From contig OZ244044.1 in the NCBI GenBank assembly GCA_965215275.1, forward strand, positions 1,664,001-1,728,000: a stretch of 64,000 nucleotides of DNA, given 5' to 3'. The notes beneath the pieces are model-generated. The model did not search any database. It was not told the DNA's origin and saw only the letters and a list, made by a program, of their open reading frames with translations. Below are positions 11,497 through 32,689 of this stretch, piece by piece. Source of the DNA: Thermodesulfobacteriota bacterium (GTDB lineage Bacteria > Desulfobacterota_D > UBA1144 > Nemesobacterales > JAJCZQ01). The first letter of the stretch is position 1, and each line of letters begins with the position of its first letter. Made by a program: the position numbers and the translations under genes.

Positions 11497-12645
11497 ATGA
11501 TAAACAAAGAGCGTATGACCGAACATTTAATGGAACTTATAAGGATAGATAGTCCGTCCAGGCGTGAAAAGAGGGTTGCATTAAAACTTCAAAGGGAAAT
11601 GGAGGAGCTTGGAGGGAAGTGCATATACGATGAAGCGGGAGATGTAGTAGGGGGAGAAGTAGGCAATCTGTTGGTGAAGATAAAAGGTAATAAGAATGGA
11701 GTTCCAGCTTTTTTTCTCTCTTCTCACATGGACACGGTTGGTCCCGGAGAGGGTATAAGACCGGAAATAGAAGATGGAAGGATGAGAAGCGACGGCACGA
11801 CGATCTTAGGTGCTGATGATAAAAGCGGGGTTTCGATAATAGTGGAAATAATAAGAACGCTCAAGGAGCAAGATTTACCACATGGCGATATTGAGATTGC
11901 ATTTACGATATGTGAAGAGGTAGGACTTTTAGGAGCAAAGTACTTTGACGTATCAAGTCTGAATTCCCGTTATGGAATAGTTCTGGATAGCAGTACCCCG
12001 GACAGGCTTGTTCTTAAATGTCCGTCTTCTGATATTTTAACGATAAGAGTACACGGACTTGAAGCTCACGCGGGTCTTTGTCCAGAGAAAGGGATCAGTG
12101 CGATACAGTTAGCCTGTCGTGCAATATCCAATATTACAACTGGCAGGATAGATCATGAAACTACTTCAAATATTGGTATTATAGGAGGAGGGGTTGCTGC
12201 CAACATAGTTCCAAACTTCGCTGAGGTTGTCCTGGAAGTCAGGAGCCATGATAATGCAAAACTTGATGAACAGGTCAAGCATATATGTGACAGTTTTCAT
12301 CAGGAAGTAAAAAGCTGCTCGGTTATTGTAGATGGTCAGGAAAAGAGGCCAGTTGTAGATATTGACGTCGACCACGTTTATCGTAAGATGGACGTTCCTG
12401 CGACAGCCAGGGTCACTCAATTAGTGGACAAGGCCGTTTCAGACCTTGGGTATACAATAAAGCACCATACTACTGGAGGAGGTTGTGACGCGAACTATTT
12501 TAATAATAAAGGCGTGGAATGTGTAAACCTTGGAACGGGTATGTACGAACTGCATACGGTTAACGAGTATTTAGTACTGGATGAGTTTTACAGAAGTGCA
12601 GATATAGTTCTGGAGACGTTAAAACTGAACGCCGCTGATGGTTAA
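11497..12645 (+). CDS. M20 family metallopeptidase (peptidase T-like)
   Basis: SHMDTV, LGADDKSG, EEVGLLGA, AHAG..PE.G, GGCDAN and a C-terminal HT.NE. Confidence 0.9.
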   Translation: MINKERMTEHLMELIRIDSPSRREKRVALKLQREMEELGGKCIYDEAGDVVGGEVGNLLVKIKGNKNGVPAFFLSSHMDTVGPGEGIRPEIEDGRMRSDGTTILGADDKSGVSIIVEIIRTLKEQDLPHGDIEIAFTICEEVGLLGAKYFDVSSLNSRYGIVLDSSTPDRLVLKCPSSDILTIRVHGLEAHAGLCPEKGISAIQLACRAISNITTGRIDHETTSNIGIIGGGVAANIVPNFAEVVLEVRSHDNAKLDEQVKHICDSFHQEVKSCSVIVDGQEKRPVVDIDVDHVYRKMDVPATARVTQLVDKAVSDLGYTIKHHTTGGGCDANYFNNKGVECVNLGTGMYELHTVNEYLVLDEFYRSADIVLETLKLNAADG

Positions 12646-12923
12646 GAGAAAAAGGGGCGTTAATACTGATAGATCATGGCAGTAAAGTAAAAGAGGCTAA
12701 CGACCTGCTTGTAAAGGTCAGGGAAAAGCTGCAGAGCAGTCCGGACTGTAAATTCGATATTGTGGAACACTGCCACATGGAACTTGCCTCTCCCAGTTTG
12801 GAAGACGCGTTTTCCGTTTGCGTCAGTTCAGGTGCGGAGGAGATAGTGGTACATCCGTATTTTCTGGCACCGGGCAGGCATTCAAAGACTGATGTACTTG
12901 ACATTACAGCAAAGCAGAAGTAA
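12638..12923 (+). pseudogene. cbiX: Sirohydrochlorin chelatase CbiX/SirB remnant (frameshifted, 3'-truncated)
   Basis: The frame from 12657 reads ALILIDHGSKVKEAN...CHMELASPSL...VHPYFLAPGRHSKTDV. The ATG at 12638 is one base out of frame across AAAAAGGGG. Homology ends where the AT-rich island starts. Confidence 0.75.
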
Positions 12924-12984
12924 AATATAAATGTTATGAAAAATTTCATGAAAAGTTCAAACATAAAAACACGTAGTTCCATTA

Positions 12985-12995
12985 CCCCCCCCCCC
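12985..12995 (+). repeat. Poly-C tract (C11)
   Basis: Direct count, in an otherwise AT-rich region upstream of the S8-like gene. Confidence 0.9.
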
Positions 12996-13041
12996 GTGTA
13001 TACCTGACCTTTCAGTCTGGTATAAGTATTTTGTAAGAACA

Positions 13042-16000
13042 ATGTTTAAGATAATACCCCCCCCCATCTAAGTTAATCCTTTCTTTATTCTTATTTTTTC
13101 TGTTTATACTGGTAATAGCTGCAAAAGGGCAGAGCAGCTCAGAAGAAACATTATCTGAATGCAGAGGTATGAGTGCAGACACGGAAGATCCGTTATACGG
13201 ATGTCAGTGGCATCTGAAGAACACTGGGCAGTTAAGTTTTTCCGGAAAGGAAATAACGGCAGGAGAAGATATAAACATAGAGGGAGTGTGGAACGAAGAC
13301 GTATACGGTACCGGAATTAACATAGCAATAGTAAGTGACGGTATCGACCTTTCACATGAGGACCTTTCTGCTAACGTCCGTTCCGGACTGCACTATGATC
13401 ATTCATACGGTTCATCCTTTAGTGGAACACAAGCGGCAGGTGTTATTGCAGCAACTGGATATAACGGACTGGGAGTAAGAGGAACTGCACCTGGTGCGAG
13501 TATATACAGTTACAGGTTATCCGGTGATATCAGTGAAGCGGACGCGGTGGTCCGTAATAAGGAAATAACTGCAGTATCGGTTAACGGCCTGGGATCTGAG
13601 GACGGATATTATTTTCAGGAGGCTTCATCTTCCTGGGAAGAAGGAGTGGAACTTGGTATAAAGAAAGGGTTTTATGGTAAAGGGGTGTTTTACGTCTGGG
13701 GAGCAGGGGATGGGCATGAGAATAACGATCAGGCTAATTTTTCTGAATATTCTAATTACTACGGCGTAACTGCCGTGTGTTCAACAGACGGCTTTGGAAA
13801 GAAGAGTATATTTTCAGAAGAGGGAGTAAATCTATGGGTATGTGCACCTGGTTCTGATATTGTAACTACTGATAACAACAACGATTACATTGTAACTTCC
13901 GGAACATTTCTTTCAGCTTCACAGGTTGGAGGAGTGGCAGCACTGCTGAGAGAGATAAACGGACAGCTGAGCTGGAGGGATATAAAGCTTATACTTGCGG
14001 GTTCAGCACGGCAGAACGATTTTTTTGATATGAGCTGGGAGACTGGAGCTGTTAAATACGGTTCTGATACGGAAAGATATAATTATAATCCTAAGTATGG
14101 TTTTGGCGTGGTAGACGCAGAAGCAGCTGCAGAGCTTGCAAAAAGCTGGAAAGGCGTTGGTGAAATGAGGACCGTTACAGCTTCTTCAGATAATGAGATA
14201 ACAATTCCTGATGGAGAAGGAGATGGAGAAGGAGAAGCAGACGGGATCCTTGTTTCCAGACTTATGATACCGGACCTTGAAGAAATATTTACGGAATTCG
14301 TTGAAGTAGAACTTGTTTTTTCGTGTGACTGCTTACAGGACCTTGATATAAAAATAACCTCTCCTTCCGGGACAATATCGGAACTTGTAAGGGAGTCTGT
14401 AAGTGGATCTTCGGATGAAGAAAAAAACTGCGTCAGTTACCTGAGAAGAACACATCGTTTCGGGTCGGCTAAACACCTCGGAGAAGACCCTTCCGGAGAA
14501 TGGATTCTCAATATAGCCGATACTGCTTCCGGAGATGAAGAAAATGGAGAAAATACTTTTACCTTACACTCTTGGAGCATTAAGGTATACGGGAATTTTT
14601 ATCAGGGACCTGGCAGTGAGACAGGTCCCAAAGATCATAATGTAAGTTTTGGCAATGCAACGATAGCTGAACAATCGTATAAAGTAGGTGAAGCAATAAA
14701 ACCATTAGTGCTGCCTCTCCCAATAACAGGGGGTGGTTACAGTCTTTCATTGTCTCCTAAATTACCTGATGGATTGAGTCGTAGCTTCCGAACTATAAGT
14801 GGAACACCAACTACTGCAACACCTGAGACCCTTTATACATGGACCGCCAGAGATAGTAACAGTGGAGATACGGATGAGTTAACGTTCAATATTACGGTAG
14901 AATCTGACATACCAACCTTCGGCAGTGAGACGGTAGAGGATCAGACGTGGTTTAATGGCAGCGCAGTAACGTTAACTCTGCCTCAGGCTACCGGAGGTAA
15001 CGGAACTTTAAATTACAGTTTAACTCCTGCTGAACCAAGTGGACTTACCTTTACCGAAAGCACCAGAATGTTAAGTGGAACACCCAGCATTTCTGCACAT
15101 CTACTTCCTTTAACTGTTACTTATACTTACAAGGTAACTGATGATGACGGTGATTCTGACAGTATTACTTTCTCTATTACTATAACAACGGACCTGGCCT
15201 TTGACAGTGGGGATGGGTCTTTTACTGATTTTTATACACTAATAGCAAATGCATTATCATCAATACCCACTCTAACGAGTAATTCGTTGCCTGCTGCAAC
15301 GGGAGGTACTCCTCCATATATATACAGTGTTACTCCTGTATTACCAGACGGATTAGCAGCGTATAACTCTAATGACAGAGTTATACGCGGGACACCAACT
15401 ACTGCAACGCCCAGGACTACCTATACGTATACCGTTACTGACAATAACGGACATACGGCTGAATTGATGTTCGATATTGCTGTAAGAGCACTCTTCATAA
15501 GTGCTGCTGTGATAAATGATAAGGTGTATTTAACCGGTACAGAAGTAACAGAAGTGCTGCCTGCAGCAGATGGACATAATGGAACGTTAACGTACAGTTT
15601 AACTCCCAATTTACCTTCCGGACTGGATTTTACCCCTGCCACCCGAGAGATAAGTGGAACTCCAGATACTGCAACTTCCAGAAGCACTTATACTTATACG
15701 GTAACTGACACAGATGGATTTAAGAACTCAAAGACGTTCAGTATTACTGTAAGAGCAGAACCGAACACAATGCCGACCTTCGGCAGTGAAACTATAGATA
15801 ATAAAGTGTATATAAACGGAGAAGCAGTAAATGAAACACTGCCAGAAGCAACGGGAGGGAATGCTCCTTTAACTTACAGTTTAACTAGTCTTGGGTTAAT
15901 TGATCTTAATTTACCAACTGAATTGGGATTTAATCCTGATACCAGAGTGTTAAGTGGAACACCCAACCTTGATGCACGAATACTTCCTGTAACTCGTACA

Positions 16001-16501
16001 TATACATATACAGTAACGGACGCAGATAATGATACAGATGAACTGGAGTTCAGTATTACAGTGGAAGAAGACAGCGAACCGGACTTCAGCGTGACGACGA
16101 TAGAAGATCAGGTGTACATGGGGAGATCAATAAGTTTGCCGGTAGCAACGGGAGGGAATGCACCGTTAGTATACAGTATAACGCCTCCCTTACCTCCTGG
16201 GTTGAGATTGGACAGAGACACAGGGATAATAAGCGGGACGCCCGCGAGTGCGTCGTCTGAGAGGACCTACACGTACACGGTAACGGACAGGAATGGAGAC
16301 ATTAAAGAGTTGACCTTCAGGTTCAGTGCAGCGGCTCCGCCACCGACAGGTAGTGATTCAGGCGGAGGTGGTGGAGGATGTGCTGTCTCAGATCAGAGCA
16401 GCACTGCTTCTGATATTCTCGGAGTAATGGCATGTCTGATACTTATACCTGTATCAGTAGCTATCAGAAGGAAGAGAAGGTCTCAGGTAAAAAAGCAGTA
16501 A
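13042..16501 (+). CDS. Surface protein: S8/proprotein-convertase-like domain, P domain, six putative Ig (He_PIG-like) repeats and a C-terminal sorting signal; frameshifted at the C9 tract (ORF track 13169-16501)
   Basis: DPLY..QWHL, G.G..IAIV.DG, YGFG.VDA and the P-domain motif GEDPSGEW.L. Repeats follow LP.ATGG..L.YS..P.LP.GL...R.ISGTP...TYTYTVTD. The tail is GGGGGGC-TM-RRKRR. Confidence 0.85.
13057..13065 (+). repeat. Poly-C tract (C9) between the ATG and the signal-peptide coding sequence
   Basis: ATG(13042) TTT AAG ATA ATA C9 ATC TAA. A C8 or C11 tract would join it to the long ORF. Confidence 0.9.
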
Positions 16502-16542: not shown

Positions 16543-17392
16543 TGGTTTTCTTTTATATCAGTTATCAGTTCTTTGAGGAGAACGGGTGTAGTATTACCGT
16601 GTATTGAACTATAGTATATAATTTCTTTAAATTGTGTTTAGCCTTGTTTATTAACTGTTATTTTCCCTGTGGCTACTAACTCGTTGAGCAATGCAGTCAA
16701 TTCTGCTTTTTGCTGAGCAAGTTTTTTGTCCATATAAGTTGTCTGAGCAGCAAGTTTTTTGTCCATATAAGTCGTCTGAGCAGCAAATTTATCAGTAAAA
16801 TATTTTTTAACTTCTTCGATCTTATCTGAATATTCTTTTAACATTTTCTTCTCTTTTATACTTAGCTGATTTTCCAAATATATTTTAATTGTAAAAAACA
16901 CAGCAGCAATTATCGAAGTTGCTGCAATTACTATTGGAGTTAAATTTTTAAAAGAAACATAGATAAGAGAATTGGGGTCTGGTTTTCTTTTAATCAGTTA
17001 TCAGTTCGTTGAAAAAATGGGTGTATTACCGTGTATTGAGCTATAGTATATAATTCCTTTAAATTGTGTTTAGCCTTGTTTATTAACTGTTATTTTCCCT
17101 GTGGCTACTAACTCATTGAGCAATGCAGTCAATTCTGCTTTTTGCTGAGCAAATTTTTTGTCCATATCAGTCATTTGAGCAGCAAGTTTTGTGTTCATAT
17201 CAGTCGTCTGAGCAGCAAATTTGTCAGTAAAATCTTTTTTAACTTCCTCAACCTTATCTGAATATTCTTTTAACATTTTCTTCTCCTTTATACTTAGCTG
17301 ATTTCCCAAATATATTTTAATCGTAAAAAACACAGCAGCAATTATTGAAGTTGCTGCAATTACTATTGGAGTTAAATTTTTAAAAGAAACAT
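16543..17392. repeat. Imperfect tandem duplication of ~415 bp (16543-16960 and 16980-17392)
   Basis: The two stretches align base by base from TGGTTTTCTTTTA to AAAGAAACAT. Confidence 0.9.
16638..16901 (-). pseudogene. 5'-truncated copy of the adjacent membrane/coiled-coil gene
   Basis: Near-identical to the C-terminal part of 17070-17504 but lacks the first TM segment and the original start. Confidence 0.6.
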
Positions 17393-17504
17393 GGTTATAA
17401 GCCCCTTTATGGAAAAATATACTACCATATATTAAAAAAATTATAAATAATATAATAAATGCAATTTCAAAAATGAGTTTGTAATTAGATAATCTATCGT
17501 TCAT
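17070..17504 (-). CDS. Hypothetical protein: two TM segments plus 11-aa coiled-coil repeats
   Basis: Hydrophobic N-terminus followed by DKKFAAQTTDM-type 11-residue repeats. Confidence 0.65.
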   Translation of the reverse strand: MNDRLSNYKLIFEIAFIILFIIFLIYGSIFFHKGAYNHVSFKNLTPIVIAATSIIAAVFFTIKIYLGNQLSIKEKKMLKEYSDKVEEVKKDFTDKFAAQTTDMNTKLAAQMTDMDKKFAQQKAELTALLNELVATGKITVNKQG

Positions 17505-31297: not shown

Positions 31298-32689
31298 ATG
31301 GATAGTGAAAAGAGGATAATTAAGCAGACGAGGACGGAACGCAGAGTGACTGGATTGAATCACCCTTCAACTCATAAGGGTTTGGAAAGGACTTTGGACC
31401 AGCTTACCTATCTGTATAACAGCGCTCTGGAAGAAAGGAAAGAAGCGTACAAAAAATACAAGAAGCTGAAGAAGTGGGGTTTGTCAGAAGAAAGGTTACA
31501 GATGTATTTCTACCCACAATGGGAGTTTGGTATTTCTTACAACAAGAAGAACAGAGTTAAATATCTGGATACAGTTTATGAAGCAGTTAACAGGTTAGTA
31601 AGTAATATCAGACCTTGTGATGATCCTGTTAACTGGAGAGAGTTATCAAAAGAAGAGCTAAAGAAGAAGTCAGTAAGTTATGAAGATCAGGCGAAGTCAC
31701 TGACGGAGATAAGGAATGATGTTTTATTGAAAGGATTCAGCAAGGTAGGTGTTCAGGCACAGCAAAGGACGTTAAAGAGAGTGGATAAGGCTTACAGTGA
31801 TTATATTAAAGGATTGAGAGGCAGTCCTAGATATAAGAACAGCAGCAGAAAGGTAAGAAGTTTTGAAACATATACATGGGGAAATGTAAAGAAAGGAGAG
31901 AGAAGGACATATTTAACGGTAAAGGGAGCAGGCAGGATCTCATTCAGGGGAAGAATACCGGAAGGAACAAAATACATAAGGATATTAAGAACAGCTTTAA
32001 GAGTGGAGGTTCAGTTTGTTTACGAGAAGATAGCTGGAGAGGACAGAGGACTGGACAGAGCGATAGGAATGGATCTTGGAGTAAGGAACAGGATTGCTTT
32101 ATCAGATGGGTCGTTTTACAAGGGAACTGAAGTAAGCAGAAAGAAAGACAAAAGAAAGCAGAGAGCAGTTTCAAGAGCTGAAAAAGGTTCCAACGGCAGA
32201 AAGAAGAAGGTAAAGCTGCTTGGGAAGGAACGAGCAAGAACAGCAATAAAGGAACATAACAAAATACACAGGTTAACTACAGAACTGTCAAGAGCGTATA
32301 ATTTTGTTATATCAGAAGATCTGAGATTAAAGGATATGAGCAGATCGGCAAAGGGGAACGTGGGAGATCCGGGTAAGAAAGTAAAGCAGAAATCAGGATT
32401 AAACAGGTCTTTACGGGAACAGCAGTTGGGCAAGGTATTAGATCAGCTTGAATACAAGGTTAAAAGCACTGGTGGCAAGCTGAGCAGGACTCCGGCTCAA
32501 TATACGTCACAGACCTGTTCTGAGTGCGGATACAGAGATAAAAGGAACAGAAAAGGAGAAGTATTTAAGTGTGTGTTTTGCGGTCATAAAGACCATGCAG
32601 ACACGAATGCAGCTATAAACATTTGCAATAGTGAAAACACGCTATGTCGGGTGGGACAGCCAGACTTGAGCTCCCGATGCAAGCTGTAA
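31298..32689 (+). CDS. tnpB: RNA-guided endonuclease TnpB
   Basis: RuvC motifs GMDLG, SEDL and ADTNAAINI; QKSGLNRS; YTSQTCSECG...CVFCG Zn finger. Confidence 0.93.
   Translation: MDSEKRIIKQTRTERRVTGLNHPSTHKGLERTLDQLTYLYNSALEERKEAYKKYKKLKKWGLSEERLQMYFYPQWEFGISYNKKNRVKYLDTVYEAVNRLVSNIRPCDDPVNWRELSKEELKKKSVSYEDQAKSLTEIRNDVLLKGFSKVGVQAQQRTLKRVDKAYSDYIKGLRGSPRYKNSSRKVRSFETYTWGNVKKGERRTYLTVKGAGRISFRGRIPEGTKYIRILRTALRVEVQFVYEKIAGEDRGLDRAIGMDLGVRNRIALSDGSFYKGTEVSRKKDKRKQRAVSRAEKGSNGRKKKVKLLGKERARTAIKEHNKIHRLTTELSRAYNFVISEDLRLKDMSRSAKGNVGDPGKKVKQKSGLNRSLREQQLGKVLDQLEYKVKSTGGKLSRTPAQYTSQTCSECGYRDKRNRKGEVFKCVFCGHKDHADTNAAINICNSENTLCRVGQPDLSSRCKL

Follow-up and report, generated by a model that had tools for sequence, protein, structure and literature searches.

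Duplicated promoter-start-poly-C cassettes as likely phase-variation switches of a predicted pseudo-protease surface family in an uncultured bacterium

Phase variation by homopolymer tracts is known mainly from animal pathogens. The opa genes of Neisseria are unlinked paralogues, about a dozen copies at most, that encode beta-barrel surface proteins, and each is switched by a single tract of a pentamer repeat located in the signal-peptide coding region. In porA-type systems, also from Neisseria, the tract lies in the spacer between the -35 and -10 promoter elements. Contingency loci are defined in one account by expression that switches reversibly and at a high rate (PMC11868660). Genes with repeat tracts in the 5′ coding region are subject to on/off control, and in Helicobacter pylori sabA a CT repeat within the coding sequence turns expression on or off and a T-tract beside the -35 box tunes transcription (PMC4081817). 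In Campylobacter, G/C runs of at least 8 nt drive switching, according to a genome survey (PMC6321876).

The window analysed here is a 64,000-nt stretch of a 99.87% complete genome, designated G000, that was assembled as one contig of 1,990,023 bp. Two poly-C runs precede one of its open reading frames (ORFs; Table 1), and the initial annotation had described them as a candidate phase-variation switch in the OFF position. On re-reading, the frames agree with that description. The frame that encodes the signal peptide has no start codon: no in-frame ATG, GTG or TTG is present between the TAA at 13052 and the ATG at 13169, which is the first usable start in the open frame and lies downstream of the signal peptide. 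The frame from the ATG at 13042 (ATG2) encodes MFKIIPPPI and then a stop; C8 or C11 at tract 2 would fuse this ATG to SKLILSLFLFFLFILVIAAKG-QSS and the remainder of the ORF (stop at 16499-16501). Similarly, the ATGs at 12936 (ATG1) and 12948 direct peptides of 23 and 19 residues that end in SITPPPVYT, and C10 or C13 at tract 1 would place them in the frame of ATG2. The state of the locus in the assembly is therefore +1/+1 (tract 1/tract 2), with both runs one base too long. As every route to the signal peptide crosses tract 2, which is out of frame from both starts, the gene is OFF as assembled under all models but recoding. A G/C run of at least 8 nt in the 5′ coding region sets the frame of this gene, with stops in the other frames, as at contingency loci.

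Slippage at the poly-C runs, the mechanism named in the initial annotation, is well supported by a genome-wide excess of runs, by length differences at single-copy tracts and by the paralogue comparison that the annotation had called for, in which the same two-run cassette was found on 28 paralogues. The annotation had left it undecided whether the switch has one tier or two; two tiers are favoured here, and they look arranged as a predicted master switch with a nested level control more than as a strict AND. The annotation did not record the consensus promoter at 12898-12926, the degenerate second module at 13004-13032 or the absence of a catalytic triad.

Table 1. Positions, within the window, of the elements of the two-run cassette and of the gene that follows it
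Feature	Position	Strand	Description
P1, predicted main sigma70-type promoter	12898..12926	+	TTGACA (12898-903), 17 nt, TAAAAT (12921-26)
ATG1 (12936; in-frame ATG 12948) and leader 1	12936..12984	+	9 nt after the -10 box
Tract 1, C11	12985..12995	+	+1 state; upstream ORF ends at TGA 13005-07
P2, degenerate promoter-module copy, candidate promoter	13004..13032	+	CTGACC (13004-09), 17 nt, TATTTT (13027-32)
TAA ending the upstream ORF at tract 1 C9/C12	13034..13036	+	candidate site of re-initiation, 5 nt short of ATG2
ATG2 and short leader 2 (MFKII)	13042..13056	+	9 nt after the P2 -10 box
Tract 2, C9	13057..13065	+	+1 state, stop TAA 13069-71; predicted master switch
Rest of signal peptide (SKLILSLFLFFLFILVIAAKG)	13067..13129	+	predicted cleavage before Q at 13130; read from sequence
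Kexin/furin-like S8 domain and P-domain	13307..14584	+	Pfam PF00082, PF01483
Ig-like stalk, 6 He_PIG stretches	14640..16330 (bounds approximate)	+	Pfam PF05345, E 2e-48
C-terminal GGGGGC, hydrophobic helix, basic tail	16364..16501	+	predicted membrane anchor or sorting signal; read from sequence

The encoded protein has the domain order, S8 then P-domain, of the kexin/furin-like subtilases (PDB furin and kexin, E about 1e-29), from which it differs by loss of the catalytic triad and oxyanion Asn and by the addition of the Ig stalk and C-terminal anchor. Alignments to furin and within the family identify the replacements as Asp to Ser (13334), His to Ser (13421) and Ser to Phe (13907) in the triad, and Asn to Asp (13709) at the oxyanion position. 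The product is predicted to be a pseudo-protease homologue and is not filed here as an active peptidase. The paralogues have a homologous hydrophobic stretch 3′ of their last tract, and the GGGGGC-helix-basic tail is conserved in most of them. Assignment of this tail as a GlyGly-CTERM/rhombosortase target was considered and rejected: an NCBIfam search with the last 100 amino acids gave no CTERM hit at E 0.01, and a search of the genome for rhombosortase (TIGR03902) gave no match.

P1 has 11 of 12 consensus matches and is the sole promoter site called by a promoter scan of positions 12500-13300. Its motif, TTGACA-17/18-TARAAT, is present upstream of 50 of the 51 paralogues with a 5′ run, and a start codon follows the -10 box by 8-10 nt in all 50, by 9 nt in 38. 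With this spacing, ATG1 is predicted to be a near-leaderless start, lacking a Shine-Dalgarno motif, and tract 1 to lie inside the transcript. The distance from ATG1 to the tract is 28, 37, 43, 49 or 55 nt in 24 of the 28 cassettes, lengths that differ by multiples of 3; the tract edges are altered in the remaining four. In four paralogues with one run, a tract-1-type left flank is fused directly to the signal peptide, and P1 precedes three of the four, an arrangement that favours genuine initiation at ATG1.

Immediately upstream of ATG2, 46 nt repeat the first promoter and ATG module in degenerate form. Aligned without gaps, CTGACC-17-TATTTT-9-ATG (P2) and TTGACA-17-TAAAAT-9-ATG (P1) are identical at 24 of 44 bases, and divergent P2 copies have TTGACC and TACAAT boxes. 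For every one of 24 distinct P2 modules there is a P1 with 24-32 of 44 bases identical, a score of 24 being reached by 0.23% of 20,000 random ATG windows. From this excess the sequence of the cassette is read as a promoter-ATG-leader-C-run unit, present twice and then followed by the signal peptide. P2 scores 8/12 and is not called by the scan that calls P1, and TG is present at the TA positions of the P2 -10 box in 5 of the 28 copies. Counted from the C-run, the P2 -35 box follows after 8 nt in 25 of the 28 cassettes. Tract 1 was rejected as a porA-type spacer tract, since the -35/-10 spacers of P1 and P2 are 17 nt without a run and the consensus promoter is located 60-90 nt upstream. The ATG of ATG2 is kept in all 28 cassettes, and in 27 of them the first stop in the -1 frame ends at -5 to +1 relative to ATG2, including TAATG and TGACAATG arrangements in divergent copies.

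In total, 59 ORFs match the N-terminal half of the protein, about 9% of the genome. The family alignment contains 57 ORFs with at least 250 aligned residues, and the frame analysis covers 51 loci that have a 5′ run (two runs in 28, a single run in 23), two of which have the common N-terminus and no S8 part. The full triad is missing in 49 of the 50 aligned copies that have a 5′ run. Of the seven paralogues that have no 5′ run, six keep Asp, His, Ser and Asn; in the other, an internal run interrupts the gene. As the gated, catalytically dead copies form one clade (SH-aLRT 99 in a quick tree), gating plus triad loss is counted on these sequences as one evolutionary event, not 50, and a Fisher test of tract against dead triad (P 1e-6) is not valid. 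Nearly every copy has an open frame of 560-1,570 codons behind the runs and an intact promoter, signal peptide and anchor; internal stops or a missing C-terminal anchor occur in a few.

Runs of C or G are unusually distributed throughout the genome. There are 787 of 5 nt, 78 of 6, none of 7, 6 of 8, 68 of 9, 32 of 10, 18 of 11 and 15 that are longer, so that 139 runs of at least 8 nt are present where geometric extrapolation predicts 1-2. Runs of A or T fall off smoothly and end at 9. The coding strand carries C in 100 of the 116 runs that could be assigned, the other 23 of the 139 being left out of this count. There are 82 runs near S8-family ORFs. In 20 other run regions, 18 of 26 scanned ORFs have Pfam hits, mostly to DNA methylases and restriction-modification (R-M) enzymes, with TPR, sulfotransferase, SAM-methyltransferase and GT-D (glycosyltransferase-like) also represented. 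This excess, and the placement of the runs on surface or R-M genes, are the features of contingency loci. ORFs with MutS and MutL motifs are present, so a general mutator state is probably not behind the runs.

Length variation was evaluated by comparing contigs from four sequencing runs (X1, X2, X3 and X5, the last very shallow) with a 20-kb region that contains five single-copy C-runs. The X1-X3 contigs come from one study, of a library type not known, and one of these may be the source of the assembly. The C13 at G000 828763 is C12 in X1 at full depth (455.6 of 455.6, in a 7,349-bp contig without a substitution) and C13 in X2, and the X3 contigs break there; C12 puts a methylase gene in frame. 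At 834720, the assembled C9 is matched in X3, is C10 in X1 and is a mixture in X2, where the form with the extra C has a depth of 207.9. No length change between the sequencing runs was seen at the remaining three C-runs. The three long X1 contigs (14,960 bp) are free of substitutions, and of indels at 13 A/T runs of at least 7 nt; two further one-base insertions (7794 and 12358) are accompanied by substitutions and located away from C-runs. At the locus in the window, contigs from X1-X4 match the flank and P1 exactly but cannot be separated from the paralogues at the runs; 15 tracts share the tract-1 flanks, and contig indels at 12985 and 13056 may all derive from paralogues. For the family as a whole, the contigs of four sequencing runs contain several tract-1 lengths. 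Alleles in other assemblies, compared by called N-termini only, have the same state at four of five clear orthologous loci, two full-length in both and two called short in both, and a different state at one, locus 1482199, which is in frame in G000 and called short in two other records. Shared states at four of five loci are not the most likely outcome of free random switching.

In the assembly, tract 1 is in frame in 8 of the 28 cassettes (the lengths of the 60 other runs predict 7.9), tract 2 in 5 (9.5 expected, P 0.04, with copies that are not independent) and both in one (2.7 expected, P 0.24). Only tract 2 is in frame at four loci (G000 1007934, 1102278, 1486584 and 1496660). Across the cassettes, tract 2 is at +1 in 20 of 28 (chi-square P about 1e-4) and tract 1 mostly at -1. 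Among 22 one-run copies, 4 are in frame, 5 at +1 and 13 at -1; the number in frame is 6 of 24 if any upstream ATG is allowed.

The spacer between the runs also has features that are suggestive of selection, with significance overstated by simulations that take related sequences as independent. With random substitution, 17.3 of 24 distinct spacers would be expected to keep ATG2, 18.2 to have an open read-through frame and 18.1 to have the -1-frame stop next to ATG2; the observed numbers are 24, 24 and 23. Six spacers depart from the consensus at 16-21 of 57 sites, and these, too, have ATG2 unchanged. Amino-acid constraint on the read-through leader and spacer peptide was not detected, with 12 of 32 synonymous and 47 of 127 non-synonymous changes. 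A Shine-Dalgarno motif is used at 182 of 625 starts in the genome, compared with 44 controls, and ATG2 is without one; both ATG2 and the TAA close to it may have been left over from the duplication.

That the family undergoes phase variation we regard as highly probable. For the two-run cassette, we lean towards a nested logic in which slipped-strand mispairing likely switches the gene for this surface pseudo-protease/Ig-repeat protein. Because all routes to the signal peptide pass through tract 2, this tract would be the master switch for all expression. Tract 1 would matter only for translation initiated at ATG1 on the strong transcript from P1, with three predicted outcomes. With C10 or C13, read-through would give a high level of expression. 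With C9 or C12, translation would stop 5 nt before ATG2, possibly followed by ribosome restart and an intermediate level. With C8 or C11, the stop would lie about 35 nt earlier and only the weak transcript from P2, which is predicted to be independent of tract 1, would remain and give a low level. Termination-reinitiation at overlapping stop/start pairs is known in bacteria (PMC6728339); re-initiation across a 5-nt gap in the absence of a Shine-Dalgarno motif would be an extrapolation from such pairs. The overall logic would then be OFF/low/high. With a modal length of 9 that is out of frame at most tracts, a given cell would leave most of the about 50 paralogues unexpressed, and the subset of catalytically dead surface proteins on display would vary across the population. 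More tentatively, and as a possibility short of probable, the duplicated module may set translation stochastically to one of three states for 28 of about 50 dead furin-like surface proteins, giving a graded repertoire larger than in the phase-variable pathogens compared, with the active proteases mostly ungated at their 5′ ends.

The main rival to this nested logic is a strict AND gate, in which ATG1 is the sole start, P2 and ATG2 are dead relics and both runs must be in frame, so that the second run lowers the chance of being ON from about 1/3 to about 1/9. It keeps a minor but appreciable share of our belief. Both other frames are stopped in all 28 spacers, so that the runs cannot compensate each other, the read-through frame is open in 28 of 28, P2 is weak, ATG2 has no Shine-Dalgarno motif in a genome that uses one, and cassettes with both runs in frame are rare. 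Dead relics, however, do not readily explain why ATG2 is invariant in divergent spacers, with no indel between the P2 boxes and ATG2, nor why in-frame lengths are depleted at tract 2 and not at tract 1, which is the pattern expected if tract 2 alone can turn expression on, although the copies are not independent. Tract 1 might instead be a transcriptional rheostat for P2, as is the T-tract of sabA. The 8-nt distance to the P2 -35 box and an A-rich stretch upstream, a possible UP element, are consistent with this, but the consensus P1 with an ATG at fixed distance, leader indels in multiples of 3 and the open read-through frame point to translation across tract 1, and we consider a rheostat quite improbable.

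Three further explanations were considered. If +1 ribosomal frameshifting or RNA-polymerase slippage gave constant low expression, +1 would be the working state, as the prevalence of +1 at tract 2 and the extra base in both window runs might suggest; this recoding seems improbable, as the one-run paralogues have no such bias, tract 1 is mostly at -1, the modal length of 9 accounts for much of the bias and length changes are present at the DNA level. The family might consist of dying pseudogenes, their C-runs copied with the duplications and slipping neutrally. The loss of the triad in nearly all tract-bearing copies, the few copies with internal stops or no anchor and the states shared between strains fit such one-way decay, which is nevertheless hard to reconcile with long frames still open behind intact promoters and signal peptides, or with the complete lack of runs of 7, which neutral decay would generate; we give it little credence. 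Lastly, long C-runs are prone to sequencing error and, with contigs inseparable from the paralogues at the window runs, the true gene might be in frame. Given the completeness of the assembly, the out-of-frame lengths repeated in independent contigs (C13 in X2, C9 in X3) and the several tract-1 lengths of the family in four sequencing runs, error is largely refuted genome-wide; it would explain neither the existence nor the placement of the runs, and is very improbable here.

The cassette DNA was not found in 40 related genomes, nor the S8 part in 4 genomes of the family that are 80-99% complete, and the cassette pattern had 0 hits in JGI metagenomes. A JGI protein scan identified 4 distant loci at 39-43%, and the long read-through leader was matched only in the in-frame copy of G000 itself. 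In GTDB, most relatives of the S8 part are proteins of Dehalococcoidia (38-49%); at 25 such loci there is no C/G run of at least 7 nt in the 1.5 kb upstream of the match, although the starts could be more distant than that. G000 has 28 pairs of C-runs separated by 45-75 nt, and such pairs are present in 4 of 96 other genomes of the order, mostly in low-complexity sequence. One of the genomes compared, G083, has a different two-run layout on two secreted-protein genes. Hits to C9 are equally many in several genomes of the order, so the size of the G000 repertoire is not unique. The sister species (G001) has expanded He_PIG proteins, with 41 matches, and four of these, with a lipobox-like motif, have G9-10 in the spacer of the same promoter motif. 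Together with the cassettes, these spacer runs make it look as if the genus varies its display of Ig-stalk proteins by two mechanisms.

A single uncultured bacterium with a 2-Mb genome thus devotes about 9% of it to one surface family, with about 50 members gated by poly-C. As the cassette suggests, duplicating a promoter-start-tract module could be a simple way to turn a binary switch into one with graded or rarer expression. Gating is linked to loss of catalysis, which suggests an adhesin or decoy, not an enzyme, as the variable product. The length changes between samples include one that sets a DNA methylase in frame. Gene callers label such OFF loci as N-terminally truncated proteins, and the phenomenon is therefore easily overlooked in metagenome-assembled genomes. 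A search of a mostly open-access full-text collection, limited to main texts, turned up no description of a duplicated promoter-start module with two poly-C runs in coding frames, and the surface pseudo-protease/Ig-repeat family was not found described in the same search. New here are the duplicated-promoter anatomy, the three predicted outcomes at tract 1, the length variation between sequencing runs and the tie to catalytic death.

Compared with opa, the family has about 50 copies of a single-anchor pseudo-protease. A likeness to the porA-type arrangement is present in the sister species, with G9-10 between the -35 and -10 boxes; neither run in the window is in a spacer. The runs of G000 resemble the Campylobacter phasome described in PMC6321876, with G/C runs that peak at 9 and 10, mostly in ORFs, and that are associated with surface-related and R-M genes, and exceed it in number, with 139 compared with a highest value of 81 in that 77-genome survey. 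Beside that phasome, G000 has the strong bias to C on the coding strand and the MutS- and MutL-motif ORFs noted above. By analogy, the mechanism would work like that of simple sequence repeat (SSR) contingency loci, with slipped-strand phase variation, and sabA is the closest two-tier case found. Like sabA as described in PMC4081817, the window locus has two 5′ repeat tracts on a gene for a predicted surface protein, one for frameshift on/off control and one predicted to tune level. Tract 2 corresponds to the coding-region on/off tract. Tract 1, 8 nt upstream of the P2 -35 box, might be placed to act on transcription as the second tract of sabA does, but it also lies inside the ORF from ATG1. 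The window locus differs from sabA as described there in that both tracts are poly-C, both are located in reading frames, the promoter-ATG module is duplicated and the arrangement is repeated on 28 paralogues.

A truncated copy of CbiX continues without a break into P1, the predicted sigma70-type promoter of the surface gene. Its full-length counterpart, with which it shares 94% identity, is located at about 1645937-1646400 in the source genome (G000), preceded there by a 3′-end fragment of pepT. The site of the surface gene seems to be a duplication or insertion breakpoint. Elsewhere in the window, two small ORFs in tandem are 93% identical to each other and contain short internal repeats, with more partial copies present in the genome; a Pfam search of this pair returned no match.

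Features located in the window and in the source genome
Feature	Location	Strand	Remarks
CbiX copy, no start, truncated 3′	window 12639-12920	+	Pfam E 8e-17
Small ORF, one of tandem pair	window 16638-16901	-	
Small ORF, other of tandem pair	window 17070-17504	-	
TnpB-family RNA-guided nuclease gene	window 31298-32689	+	NCBIfam match exceeding cut-off
DNA methylase gene with 5′ C-run	L016:4564 = G000:828763		run length varies among sequencing runs X1, X2 and X3
DNA methylase gene with 5′ C-run	L016:10521 = G000:834720		run length varies among X1, X2 and X3
TPR-repeat genes with internal C9-11 run	G000 19539, 20737, 31545, 1068992, 1899949, 1901573, 1914729, 1964984		

Four paralogues of the surface gene (G000 421717, 436326, 633539 and 652456) have a single run in which the left flank of tract 1 is fused to the right flank of tract 2, as if the spacer had been deleted between the runs or had never been gained. 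Within the paralogue groups 404523/397722, 421709/432800 and 137735/1744628/1028816, identities of at least 99.7% extend over 1.2-1.9 kb, a degree of sequence identity that suggests recent gene conversion or duplication. Three S8 paralogues, at 518332, 605571 and 668426, have no 5′ run but have internal G13, C9 and C17 runs, respectively, that split or could shorten these genes. An internal run is also present in every member of a second family, the eight TPR-repeat genes.

The two methylase genes with 5′ C-runs constitute a candidate phasevarion. The gene at G000:828763, encoding N6_N4_Mtase and Mrr domains, is in frame when the run is C12, and its orthologue in the sister species (G001), 65% identical, has C9 in the same position.

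In this sister species, G9-10 runs lie inside the -35/-10 spacers (16, 16, 17 and 16 nt at L096, L097, L100 and L102, respectively) of four TTGACA..TARAAT-type promoters, and the genes behind them encode He_PIG proteins with a lipobox-like motif. Gating of these related surface proteins is predicted to be transcriptional rather than translational. Counted with overlaps, C9 matches number 274 in the source genome and 288, 207, 552 and 203 in G005, G011, G025 and G056 of the same order, with zero in 6 of 61 genomes; parts of the order may share large poly-C/G repertoires as a trait. In G083, two secreted-protein genes (L127 and L132) have a G9 immediately 5′ of the ATG and another within the signal peptide, both in frame. 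This genome belongs to a different family of the order, and its arrangement of two runs is an independent one.
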